Positions 30,001 through 36,000 of a DNA stretch of 46,690 bases are shown here, piece after piece. Each line of letters begins with the position of its first letter. The first letter of the stretch is position 1. Position numbers: made by a program. The DNA is taken from IMG/VR virus record IMGVR_UViG_2718218402_000006; one strand, given 5' to 3'. The DNA is from a virus. Taxonomy: Duplodnaviria > Heunggongvirae > Uroviricota > Caudoviricetes.

Positions 30001-33000
30001 CATCGTTAGGGCAAATTTACCACAGATTCGGGAAAAATCAACAAAGCTATCTGGTCACCTTTTTCAGTTGTTGTTCTGCCCATGCTTCTTCAATATCAAA
30101 CTGCACCACCAGCGTATCGTAAAAACGTTTAACTGTTTTTTTCCATGTATCAAGAGATATGGCATCGGTTACATTACATATGGCATTAAATGCCTCCGTT
30201 GAAGGTAATCTTTCATAGCCACGACCACCACAACGCTGGCAGTCTCTGATAACAGGCATACCACGTTTTACCGACTCTTCACGATGAATGGCAACACCGC
30301 GCCCACGACAATCTTTACAGGCGGTGGAAACCTCCCCCTTCCCTCCACACTCCGGACAGGCAACTTTTACCACCTCCCTGACTTTTTTCCATTCCTCCCA
30401 GTAAGACGGATACACGCCTTTTGTACACTTTGCCCATACTGGCGGCTTACCATCCGGATACTGAATCTTGTTTGTAAAAATCTCGCTTTCAATAAATTTT
30501 TTTCCGTGACAGCATGGGCACTGTTTTTTGCTCGCCGCGCTCCGGGCATAATCCTCAAACGCATACGAAGCCATAATGCGCATCACTACCGGTTTTATTT
30601 CTGCCGGAAGTTTTCTTAACGCTGCCACGCGATCACACCGACTGAGAGCGTATTCTGCCAGCAGTTCTGTTGCCCGCTCCCTGTCATTCATACTGATGCC
30701 CATTTTCCCAAGGAACGCAGAAAACCCCATCTCAGCCCGATTCTGTGTCATGCCCTGCGCTGCCATCACATCAGTGATACTCAGCGCATCTTTTGACGTT
30801 GAGGCCGATGCATCCGTCAGACCCGGTGATTTTGGGGAATAGTATTTTGGTAAATCTTCCAGTTTCATTCTTTTGCCTGCCAGCCATGCGTTATTTCGTA
30901 AATTTTCACACCAAGCCGTCCGCCTGGAACAGGCAGACCGCGCACAATATTAATTTCATCAAACTGCTCGTCGTCGATAAGTAGTCCTGCATGCGTCAGC
31001 GCATCCAGTAGCGCTTTCAGAATGTTGTCCAGGTCACGACGGCGCTTATCCGGTGGCTCTGCAATAATCTTTATCGCCAGCCTTCCGGACAGGTTTAATT
31101 TCAGTCGCTGCTGGCGAACAATTAGCGCCACATCACGGCGATAACGCTTTCCGGCTTCCGAGATGAAATACGTATTGCCATGACGTCGCCAGTAGGTATT
31201 CACCGTCGGCGGGTAAGGCAAAACGAATTCTATGCGTTCAGTCATTCATGCTTTCCACTTCAGGACACCCGAATTTCTCGCGTGCATTAAAAAACGAATC
31301 AGCAACAACAGCTGGCTGCCGTGTTTTTCTTCAAAATCTTTTACCCCGGCGTGTAGTTCGCTATGGCATTTACGGCACAGCGGTATAACAAACAAATCAT
31401 CAGCCTTTGTTCCCATCCCTCCCAGTCCATGACCAATGATGTGATGCGGATCATCTGCCTGATTACCGCATGTCATGCATTTCTGCGTTTTTACCCAGCG
31501 CGTGTATACAGGCATCTCTTCCCGTTGTGGTTTCTGGCGCTGGAGATACTGAGCCGGAGATTCCGGATCAACGGCAATGCTGACCACCGTCTTTTCCTGT
31601 GGTGGGTTCTGTTGCTGGTGCTGGTGGACGTGAGGCGGTAGCGCAATATTTTTTGTGCGCTGCTTCAGTATGCTGGTGGCGGTCTGCTCTCCCGGTACGA
31701 TGTCGCTTTCACGGTACATTGAGCGGATTTTTTCCGCACGCAACCCCAGCGAACGACGTAATACCGCTTCCGGTAGCGCGTCCGCCACCTGATTGCGGAC
31801 CGCCCACCAGGATAATTCAGCCAAAGATAATTCACGCTCCTGCGTACCGCTTATTGCGTGACCGATGACGTCAATCATCCATGCTGACAGGTTTTGATGA
31901 GCAAGTTGCTCGAGTGATTCGGATGTCTGGTCACGCAGCTGGTTGTCGCAGTGCCAGCACAACACCATTGCGCCGGTACCATAACGGTGAATGACGGTTT
32001 CGCTGTGATGATAATCGCCGTGTGGCCACTGGCAGGATTTAATATGGCGCAACAGCCAGTCAGACAATGCACCAGCACCACCAGCAGCACGAATCACCCG
32101 TGCGTTACTGAAAAACGGCAGCAATGTTTTGTCTTCCACCAGCGGCTGGCGAACGGCAGGAACGACCCCGGACGGCAGATTACGCATGCTTTTCGGTTCC
32201 GCCCCACCAATACCCGGGTATTGTGGAATACCGGCATGGATTCACGGCCCGGCTTAACGATCACCAGCCCGAGTTCCGGTACCAGAACAGGTCGAAGTAA
32301 TACCCGCACGTTACCTCCAGATCCGTTGCTGGAATGTGCGGGACGGACGCGGTGGGCGTTCGGAGTAAGGTAACCGGCTCATTTAAACCGTCTGGTCTGT
32401 TTCCTCCGGCTCTACAAAAATAATGTCCATCATTTTTAATGGACACTATCGTATGAAACACCGGACCTGGATCACTGAAGCTTTACGTCTTCACTTTGAA
32501 GAACATTTACCCCGGGTTGTGGCCGGGCGTCGCCTGGGTGTACCAAAATCAACAGTTTGTAGTATGTTCGTGCGCTTTCGGAGAGCTGGCCTTTCGTGGC
32601 CTTTGCCCGCAGGCATGTCGGAGCAGGAACTTGATGCCTGCCTTTACGGACAATTTTCCACGGTACCAGTCGTACGTCCTGAAAGCACCGTTATATCCGA
32701 AGCCCCCGTGGTAAAAAAACGTCCCCGGCGGCCCAACTTCCCTTATGAGTTTAAAATCGCCTTAGTGGAGCAGTCACTGCAGCCCGGAGCCTGTGTGGCG
32801 CAGATCGCCCGGGAAAACGGAATCAACGATAACCTGCTCTTCAACTGGCGCCATCAATACCGGAAAGGTGGCCTGCTGCCTTCCGGAAAAAATATGCCGG
32901 CACTGCTTCCCGTGACGTTAACGCCGGAGCCGGATAATAAAATCCCGGCCCCCGCACAGGAACCAGAGCAGATAAATACACCGTCCGACAGTCTGTGTTG

Positions 33001-36000
33001 TGAGCTGATTCTGCCGGCCGGAACTCTCAGGCTTAAAGGTAAACTGACGCCGGCGTTATTACAGACACTTATCCGCGAAATGAAAGGGAGCAGCCACTGA
33101 TGATATCTCTCCCTGCCGGTTCTCTGGGATGTGATGTGTCAGAGCAACTGGAGCTTATCAGCAGCGCCTTTAAGGTTATCGAAACACAACGTCCGAAACT
33201 GGCCTGTTGCCGGTGCGACCATATCGTGCAGGCACCGGTGCCTTCAAAACCCATTGCACGCAGTTATGCCGGAGCGGGGCTCCTGGCCCATGTCGTCACC
33301 GGAAAATATGCAGACCATCTGCCGTTATACCGCCAGTCAGAGATATACCGCCGTCAGGGTGTGGAGCTGAGCCGTGCCACACTGGGGCGCTGGACTGGTG
33401 CCGTTGCTGAACTACTGGAGCCGCTGTATGACGTCCTGCGCCAGTATGTGCTGATGCCCGGTAAAGTCCATGCTGATGATATCCCCGTCCCGGTCCAGGA
33501 GCCGGGCAGCGGTAAAACCCGGACAGCCCGGCTGTGGGTCTACGTCCGTGATGACCGTAACGCCGGTTCACAGATGCCCCCGGCGGTCTGGTTCGCGTAC
33601 AGTCCGGACCGGAAAGGTATCCATCCACAAAATCACCTGGCCGGTTACAGCGGTGTGCTTCAGGCCGATGCTTACGGTGGTTACCGGGCGTTATACGAAT
33701 CCGGCAGAATAACGGAAGCCGCGTGTATGGCTCATGCCCGGAGAAAAATCCACGATGTGCATGCAAGAGCGCCCACCGACATCACCACGGAAGCCCTGCA
33801 GCGTATCGGTGAACTGTATGCCATCGAGGCAGAGGTCCGGGGCTGTTCAGCAGAACAGCGTCTGGCGGCAAGAAAAACCAGAGCCGCGCCACTGATGCAG
33901 TCACTGTATGACTGGATACAGCAACAGATGAAAACACTGTCGCGTCACTCAGATACGGCAAAAGCGTTCGCATACCTGCTGAAACAGTGGGATGCACTGA
34001 ACGTGTACTGCAGTAATGGCTGGGTGGAAATCGACAACAACATCGCAGAGAACGCCTTACGGGGAGTGGCCGTAGGCCGGAAAAACTGGATGTTCGCGGG
34101 TTCCGACAGCGGTGGTGAACATGCGGCGGTGTTGTACTCGCTGATCGGCACATGCCGTCTGAACAATGTGGAGCCAGAAAAGTGGCTGCGCTACGTCATT
34201 GAACATATCCAGGACTGGCCGGCAAACCGGGTACGCGATCTGTTGCCCTGGAAAGTTGATCTGAGCTCTCAGTAAATATCAATACGGTTCTGACGAGCCG
34301 CTTACGGAGTAAGGAAGCCTAACGGAGATTATCCAGTGACGATAATCGAGGCTGAGGGCTTTCTTAATCTCGTATCCGTGTCTGCGGTAACACTGAATCA
34401 GCCATTCGGCCTGTTCTTCAGTGCATGGAGGGTGTTGGTACCAGTCGGTTTTAAATACGCGAGAACGCCGCCCATGCCTGCTGGCACGAACGGCATCAGA
34501 ATTGTGATTTTTGGTATTGTGCGCCATTTGTTTTCTCTGCTGGCGCAGCAGGTGCCAGTTGTTCAGGCTGGCGTGCGAATTGTAAACCAGAATGCCAGGA
34601 AAAAACAAAACCCGCCGAAGCGGGTTAAGTGCGGGTGCGTTGAGGATGCCTGACACATCAGAGGTGGCGAGGGATTCTCCCCCGCCTGGTCTCTTACTCC
34701 TCAGGTTCGTAAGCTGTGAAGACAGCGACCTCCGTCTGGCCGGTTCGGATTCGTACCTCGCAGAGGTCTTTCCTCGTTACCAGTGCCGTCACTATGACGG
34801 TTAAACAGATGACGATCAGGGCGATTAACATCGCCTTTTGCTGCTTCATAGCCTGCTTCTCCTTGACCTTTCGGTCCGTAAGAGGCAATCTATATGTGAC
34901 GAGCATATAGGGGCCTCACTTCGATTTATAGTCGGGTGGGGCTTTTATCTATCTGCCGTTGGTGTTCATGCCCGAGGCAGATAGCCTCAAGCACCCGCAG
35001 CAATTCTACTTAACTCTGCCGTTACAGCAAACCGTTTTCGCCCGATATGGGAATTCCCATATCGGAATGAATTCAGTTCACCTGGCGAGGCTTAGCGTAC
35101 AATTTTTTCCGTTTTGTGAGCTGCCCCTACATGCCGCTGGCGCGGCATCCGGAAAAAGAATCCACGTCCTGAAGGACGTGGAGGATGTCAAGTGCCTTTC
35201 CTGGTCCAGCCATATTTTTTGAATGCAGGCGCCGCTTCATCGGTTTGTAGCCATTCTGCAAATCGACGGGTTTCATCATTTGCATCCTGACGTACTGTAA
35301 TGTTCATATCACGCCATATCACGTAGTCTGGCGCTATTTCCACGACATCACCAATTTCTGGATTACTGGCTGCCCAGTCAGCCCAGGTTATCCAGACATC
35401 TGCTCCAGGCTGATTCTCAAGAGCCTTACGTGCAGTTCCGCTATTGGGCGCATATAAAATAATATTTTTTCGGATTGCGGCGACAGTTTCTATATTCCCT
35501 TTACGTCCGGCAATATCTTCCCAGACGCCAGTGCCTGATGTATTACTGGTACCACCACCATCATTAACAATTACGCCAATCCCGGGTCTGGTCAGGTCGT
35601 CAATACTCCGGATATTTTTAGGATTACCTTTCTTTACCAGTAAAATACTTTTTCGCAGATAAAGAGGCTGAATATCTTTTTCACTGAAGCTGTCTTTATG
35701 GTCCCGAATGATAGCCAGAGCAGATTGTTCTGATGCGCCAAACAAGATATCTGCATTTTTTTTGGCATCTTCATTCCATTTGTTCTGTGGACCGTAATGC
35801 ACGTTCACTATAACACCTGTTTTTTCGGCATAAAGTTTGGCTGCTTCAAGCAAGGCTGTATGCGGGCCACCAGGACCATACAGATTGATATCAGCATAAG
35901 CAGCAGAAGACAGGAATATTAAAAAACCTGCCATTATGTTCCTCATAAAAAACTCCTTTTATTGGTTATCATGAAATAAAATTATAAACACTACAAATAA

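Follow-up and report, generated by a model that had tools for sequence, protein, structure and literature searches.

The window analyzed here is the whole 46,690-nucleotide stretch of IMG/VR virus record IMGVR_UViG_2718218402_000006, assigned to the Caudoviricetes, and it is a lambdoid prophage. Part of it has the gene order hok / small gene / DUF968 / rusA / Q, and the small gene, on the minus strand, is split by an insertion sequence (IS). The insertion, at positions 32370-34305 on the plus strand, is a 1936-bp copy of ISCro1, a member of the IS66 family that measures 2699 bp in its catalogued full-length form. More precisely, it is ISCro1 with a 763-bp internal deletion. ISCro1 was first named in Citrobacter rodentium and is common in E. 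coli chromosomes and plasmids. C. rodentium ICC168 has 24 copies of ISCro1, two of which are remnants (PMC3072379), and regulatory regions in E. coli are known targets of its insertion (PMC8764528). No further ISCro1-derived copy lies within the window.

What identifies the insertion as ISCro1? First, a megablast search of 5426 complete E. coli genomes with the 1936-bp element returns 100% identity overall, always in two pieces that span 2699 bp. The matched elements are annotated with tnpA, tnpB and an “IS66-like element ISCro1 family transposase”, and the assignment takes as its reference the genome copies whose transposase NCBI names “ISCro1 family”. Second, in a base-by-base comparison with one fetched full-length ISCro1, the element consists of bases 1-753 and 1513-2699, both arms being 100% identical. 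Third, both ends of the element are present. The left terminal inverted repeat (32370-32391, plus strand) is formed by the first 22 bases, GTAACCGGCTCATTTAAACCGT, and the right one (34284-34305, plus strand) reads ...ACGGTTCTGACGAGCCGCTTAC; the reverse complement of the last 22 bases, GTAAGCGGCTCGTCAGAACCGT, matches the left end at 17 of 22 positions, and both repeats start with GTAA. Fourth, an exact 8-bp direct repeat, GGAGTAAG, flanks the element, with the left copy of the target-site duplication at 32362-32369 and the right copy at 34306-34313. The empty site has a single copy, and the full-length ISCro1 used for comparison has an 8-bp duplication of its own, TTGCTTTT. Because both arms are 100% identical to full-length ISCro1, a chance origin of the end and repeat features is excluded. 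An earlier note on this DNA, made from the sequence without database searches, had described an IS66-family element with an 8-bp target duplication and imperfect inverted repeats beginning GTAA. Both descriptions stand, and comparison to known insertion sequences supplies the name, at 100% identity over 753 + 1187 bp.

The window copy differs from full-length ISCro1 by a single deletion of 763 bp. The matching prefix (753 bases) and suffix (1187 bases) add up to four more than the 1936-bp length, and the deletion junction, which reads ...CCTGCCGGTTCTCTGGGATG..., holds a 4-bp microhomology, GTTC (33119-33122, plus strand), common to both breakpoints in full-length ISCro1. The first of the two open reading frames (ORFs), tnpA (32423-33100, plus strand, 225 aa), is intact. 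It lies within the 100%-identical left arm, and tnpA of full-length ISCro1 (WP_001373818.1) has the same position and length. Its product matches Pfam HTH_Tnp_1 (PF01527; E = 8.5e-15) and NCBIfam IS66_access_TnpA (NF038385; 294.9 bits against a cut-off of 150), in agreement with the TnpA-like helix-turn-helix protein proposed earlier. The second ORF (33100-34275, plus strand, 391 aa) starts at the ATG of tnpB, which overlaps the tnpA stop codon (TGATG). Full-length alignment reveals it to be a tnpB'-'tnpC fusion: the deletion joins the first eight codons of tnpB (MISLPAGS) in frame with tnpC at about codon 141 (...S/LGCDVSEQ).

The Pfam content of the fusion protein reflects what the deletion took and what it left. 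The IS66 DDE domain (DDE_Tnp_IS66, PF03050) matches at E = 7e-104 over profile positions 1-283 of 284, NCBIfam transpos_IS66 matches at 443.6 bits, and the IS66 C-terminal element (DDE_Tnp_IS66_C, PF13817) is full. The zinc finger (zf-IS66, PF13005) is partial, covering profile positions 14-46 of 46, with its first CxxC pair (CPAC) deleted, and neither LZ_Tnp_IS66 (PF13007) nor TnpB_IS66 (PF05717) is found in the fusion protein. In full-length ISCro1, TnpC has LZ_Tnp_IS66 at residues 46-121 and zf-IS66 at residues 128-172, and TnpB has PF05717. The deletion has thus taken almost the whole of tnpB together with codons 1-140 of tnpC, and has spared TnpA, the whole DDE domain and both ends of the element. 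The earlier note had counted only two ORFs, recognized no tnpB-like middle ORF and no N-terminal leucine zipper, and suspected a deletion derivative. These points hold, with the refinement that the second ORF is a fusion that begins with the only codons of tnpB left. Its description of that ORF as a TnpC-like transposase with a zinc finger and a DDE domain is right for the DDE domain, which is full, and only half right for the zinc finger.

Judged by these domains, the window copy appears to be a defective descendant of the IS66 family and not a functional member. IS679, also of the IS66 family, reportedly needs tnpA, tnpB and tnpC, and is said, from work by Han et al. in 2001, to make 8-bp duplications and to have inverted repeats starting with GTAA. 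Because all three ORFs of IS679 are said to be required, the window copy should be non-autonomous, and the missing domains predict a loss of transposition activity that should leave it unable to move by itself. A promoter scan of the IS and its flanks finds no outward-facing consensus promoter.

The interrupted gene can be rebuilt exactly. When 32370-34313 is excised, which takes out the IS together with one copy of the repeat, the minus strand again reads as a 90-codon ORF, MAHNTKNHNSDAVRASRHGRRSRVFKTDWYQHPPCTEEQAEWLIQCYRRHGYEIKKALSLDYRHWIISVRLPYSERPPRPSRTFQQRIWR, which joins 32311-32369 to 34314-34527. That removal of the IS restores a small minus-strand ORF had been proposed in the earlier note, and the uninterrupted form does exist: the 687-bp reconstruction of the empty site is found at 100% identity and in one piece in two E. 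coli chromosomes, NZ_CP148391.1 and NZ_CP195362.1, and it matches 4282 of the complete E. coli genomes at a coverage of at least 80%. In NZ_CP148391.1, the uninterrupted ORF is annotated as hypothetical protein WP_032153165.1 and ends two bases before the DUF968 gene. The insertion point lies after codon 74 of 90. As now read, the 5' part of the gene (34279-34527, minus strand) has 74 native codons, at 34306-34527, followed by eight IS-encoded codons (VSGSSEPY) and a stop codon. The displaced 3' end (32311-32369, minus strand), which holds the last 16 codons, ERPPRPSRTFQQRIWR, and a stop codon, abuts the DUF968 gene. The gene starts with the ATG at 34527. An extent to 34656, as given in the earlier note, corresponds to a 125-aa reading, and this start is rejected; between hokD and the small gene, the reading would run through a strong terminator-like hairpin (34609-34626, minus strand; AACCCGCTTCGGCGGGTT, then a T-run).

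The small protein belongs to phrog_1212, a family described as prophage protein of unknown function (E = 6.1e-35; profile positions 1-66 of 66). Homologues are found by tblastn in 53 phage records, 22 of which cover at least 80% of the protein. There is no Pfam or NCBIfam match, and the best match in a PDB sequence search is at chance level (E = 0.87). The protein read from the interrupted gene would be without its conserved last 16 residues and would carry eight IS-encoded residues instead. Separately, a homologue of the small gene in several induced E. coli phages (ON470583.1, 2501-2779) carries the depositors' label “toxin to Rem”, for which a search of the literature turned up no published support; there is no rem gene in the window.

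Where did the element come from? The window is colinear from 1236 to 46690, at 99.2-100% identity, with a prophage located next to potC in E. coli Z1323HEC0010 (NZ_CP148391.1), and this sister prophage has an empty site where the window has the IS. Conversely, it has a full-length ISCro1 in its tail region, between sodC and a tail assembly gene (at window position ~7720-7730), and its Q antiterminator gene is interrupted by an IS3-family element (at window position ~30252-30257); both of these sites are empty in the window. Z1323HEC0010 and 24AR0142, which share the identical empty site, have five and eight ISCro1 matches, respectively; the best match in each is full-length, with arms that are 100% identical. 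A source for the insertion is therefore at hand, because strains with the empty site carry ISCro1 with arms identical to those in the window.

The history that we favor has two steps. A full-length ISCro1 (tnpA-tnpB-tnpC, 2699 bp) would have transposed into the lambdoid prophage of an E. coli strain, landing after codon 74 of the 90-codon gene between hokD and the DUF968 gene and generating the 8-bp duplication usual for the family. Subsequently, two GTTC tetranucleotides would have served as end points for the loss of 763 bp, through replication slippage or illegitimate recombination. The product would be TnpA plus a TnpB(1-8)::TnpC(about 141-523) fusion that has the DDE domain, half a zinc finger and no leucine zipper. 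With both ends intact, such an element could be moved at most in trans, by full-length ISCro1 copies located elsewhere in the genome. As a 1.9-kb insert in the opposite orientation, it would also separate upstream early-region transcription from DUF968-rusA-Q, and may thereby reduce read-through into Q; this polar effect is an inferred one.

We infer the order of the two steps, insertion of a full-length element first and deletion in place second, with a probability of about 0.7. One line of evidence on the order is the distribution of the deletion junction. A 121-bp junction probe finds it in none of the 5426 complete E. coli genomes at a coverage of at least 80%, and the junction is likewise not found in 72,556 plasmids, in 185,579 GTDB species-representative genomes or in JGI metagenomes. 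The fusion protein has no exact-sequence record in the gene-position index, and the junction between IS and target is not found in complete E. coli genomes or GTDB representatives. Deletion in place is favored because, among the collections searched, the deletion junction is found only here. Some considerations point the other way. A full-length ISCro1 at this site is not found in the complete E. coli genomes or the GTDB representatives, and the same cell may hold further copies of the deleted form. The loss of function of the fusion protein is likewise predicted from the domains that are missing. With respect to the polar effect, the terminator-like sites found inside the IS on the minus strand are only weak ones.

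In the alternative that survives best, the order is reversed: the deletion would have arisen first, and full-length ISCro1 copies in the same cell would then have supplied the TnpB and TnpC that brought the defective copy into the prophage gene in trans. The element has its two inverted repeats and a perfect 8-bp duplication, and helpers are not hard to find: the closest relatives hold five to eight ISCro1 matches, the best of which are full-length with identical arms, and another site in the sister prophage is itself occupied by a full-length ISCro1. However, a donor copy would be expected to remain in related genomes, and no second copy of the junction is found in any collection searched or in the window. 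Moreover, we know of no demonstration of trans-mobilization for deletion derivatives of the IS66 family. Movement in trans is unlikely on this evidence, but it retains some plausibility. Considerably less credible is the idea that the strain in fact has a full-length ISCro1 here and that the 763-bp gap was introduced by sequencing or assembly. In its favor, IS copies are difficult to reconstruct from short reads, and none of the collections searched has the deleted form. Against it, assembly collapse normally occurs between long repeats, whereas the breakpoints here share only four bases, and the flanks are clean and run colinearly with a finished genome. Finally, a natural two-ORF IS66 variant, comparable to the subgroups without accessory genes, would explain why there are only two ORFs and why the second has a good ATG coupled to the tnpA stop codon, but this possibility is refuted by the alignment to full-length ISCro1 and retains next to no probability: the arms are 100% identical to the three-ORF element, a single clean gap of 763 bp lies between them at a 4-bp microhomology, ORF2 opens with the first eight codons of tnpB, and there is no other copy of this form in the collections searched.

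What are the implications of an ISCro1 insertion that was probably followed by deletion in place? First, the finding is one of ordinary mobile-element decay, which is already known in kind, and internally deleted IS copies in prophages are commonplace. Second, its importance is largely one of annotation. An appropriate label for the region would be an internally deleted ISCro1 copy, with a tnpB'-'tnpC fusion pseudogene, inserted in a phrog_1212 gene; the label “rem-like”, discussed below, should be dropped. Third, it illustrates how prophages that are near-identical in sister strains take separate IS hits as they decay: a deleted ISCro1 in the small gene of the window, and in Z1323HEC0010 a full-length ISCro1 in the tail region and an IS3-family element in Q. 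Fourth, the fusion protein might have a function of its own. In Tn5/IS50, the N-terminally truncated Inh protein is a trans-acting inhibitor. By analogy, the fusion could conceivably be a trans-dominant inhibitor of full-length ISCro1, since it keeps the catalytic and C-terminal domains and is without the N-terminal DNA-binding/multimerization region, or the element could be a helper-movable, non-autonomous IS66 derivative. We consider this a long shot, and the inhibitor role assumes that the fusion might still be translated by virtue of its coupling to the intact tnpA.

The genes on either side of the insertion have features of their own. Downstream of the small gene, the DUF968 gene, which is ydfU-like (31246-32309, minus strand; Pfam DUF968), is frameshifted near 32190, such that the ~32 codons at its start and the 313 that follow are read in different frames. 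A tblastn search of the window with YdfU recovers only residues 38-348 in one frame, and the identical sequence in NZ_CP148391.1 is annotated as a frameshifted pseudogene. The toxin gene hokD (34694-34849, minus strand) lies upstream of the small gene; it matches Pfam HOK_GEF and is annotated as hokD in NZ_CP148391.1. An Rfam match to sok (RF01794; 103.9 bits) lies upstream of hokD at 34847-34996 on the minus strand, and the hok/sok module looks complete from these matches. Between hokD and the replication genes, the early region carries cargo: a paa gene (35188-35946, minus strand), encoding the AcfC-family adhesin Paa, and, adjoining it, a degraded fimbrial-protein gene (36107-36676). In the sister prophage, a sodC gene is present in the tail region.

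How does the locus compare with known systems? The closest relative of the element is ISCro1 itself, with which the window copy shares 100% nucleotide identity over its two arms, the same inverted repeats, the 8-bp duplication and an identical tnpA. Unlike ISCro1, it is without 763 internal bases, and hence lacks TnpB and the leucine zipper of TnpC and retains just half of the zinc finger. A similar relationship holds for IS679, with the tnpA-tnpB-tnpC organization that is prototypical of the family: the GTAA repeats, the 8-bp duplication, tnpA, the DDE domain of tnpC and the overlapping start and stop codons between ORFs are all shared, but the window copy has lost the middle ORF and the 5' third of tnpC.

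The second comparison is with the Qin prophage of E. coli K-12, which the earlier note had invoked by calling the small gene “rem-like” and by likening the order hok / small gene / DUF968 / Q to that of Qin. The first of these claims is rejected. When the small protein is compared with K-12 Rem (b1561) by BLASTP, nothing aligns at E <= 100, and PHROG assigns them to different families, phrog_1212 for the small gene and phrog_340 for Rem. In a sensitive blastn search, homology between K-12 Qin DNA and the rebuilt region extends across the whole small gene; the stretch with the small gene and the ydfU-like gene is ~83% identical to Qin, and the hokD DNA is 98.5% identical. Qin of K-12 MG1655 has an intact 92-codon ORF between ydfU and rem (NC_000913.3, 1644306-1644584, minus strand), the stop codon of which abuts the ydfU start. 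The encoded 92-aa protein is a clear orthologue of the product of the split gene, and the ORF is unannotated in this RefSeq copy. As a by-product of the analysis, therefore, K-12 Qin appears to hold an intact, unannotated orthologue of the interrupted gene. The second claim fares better. As in Qin, where hokD and rem are followed by ydfU and ydfT (quuQ), hokD in the window is followed by the ydfU-like DUF968 gene and then by Q; unlike in Qin, rusA lies between DUF968 and Q in the window. Since an intact orthologue of the small gene exists separately in K-12, rem is an additional K-12 gene and not the counterpart of the small gene. Thus, the K-12 order is hokD - rem - orf92 - ydfU - ydfT, in which rem is present in addition to orf92, the orthologue of the gene split by ISCro1 in the window.

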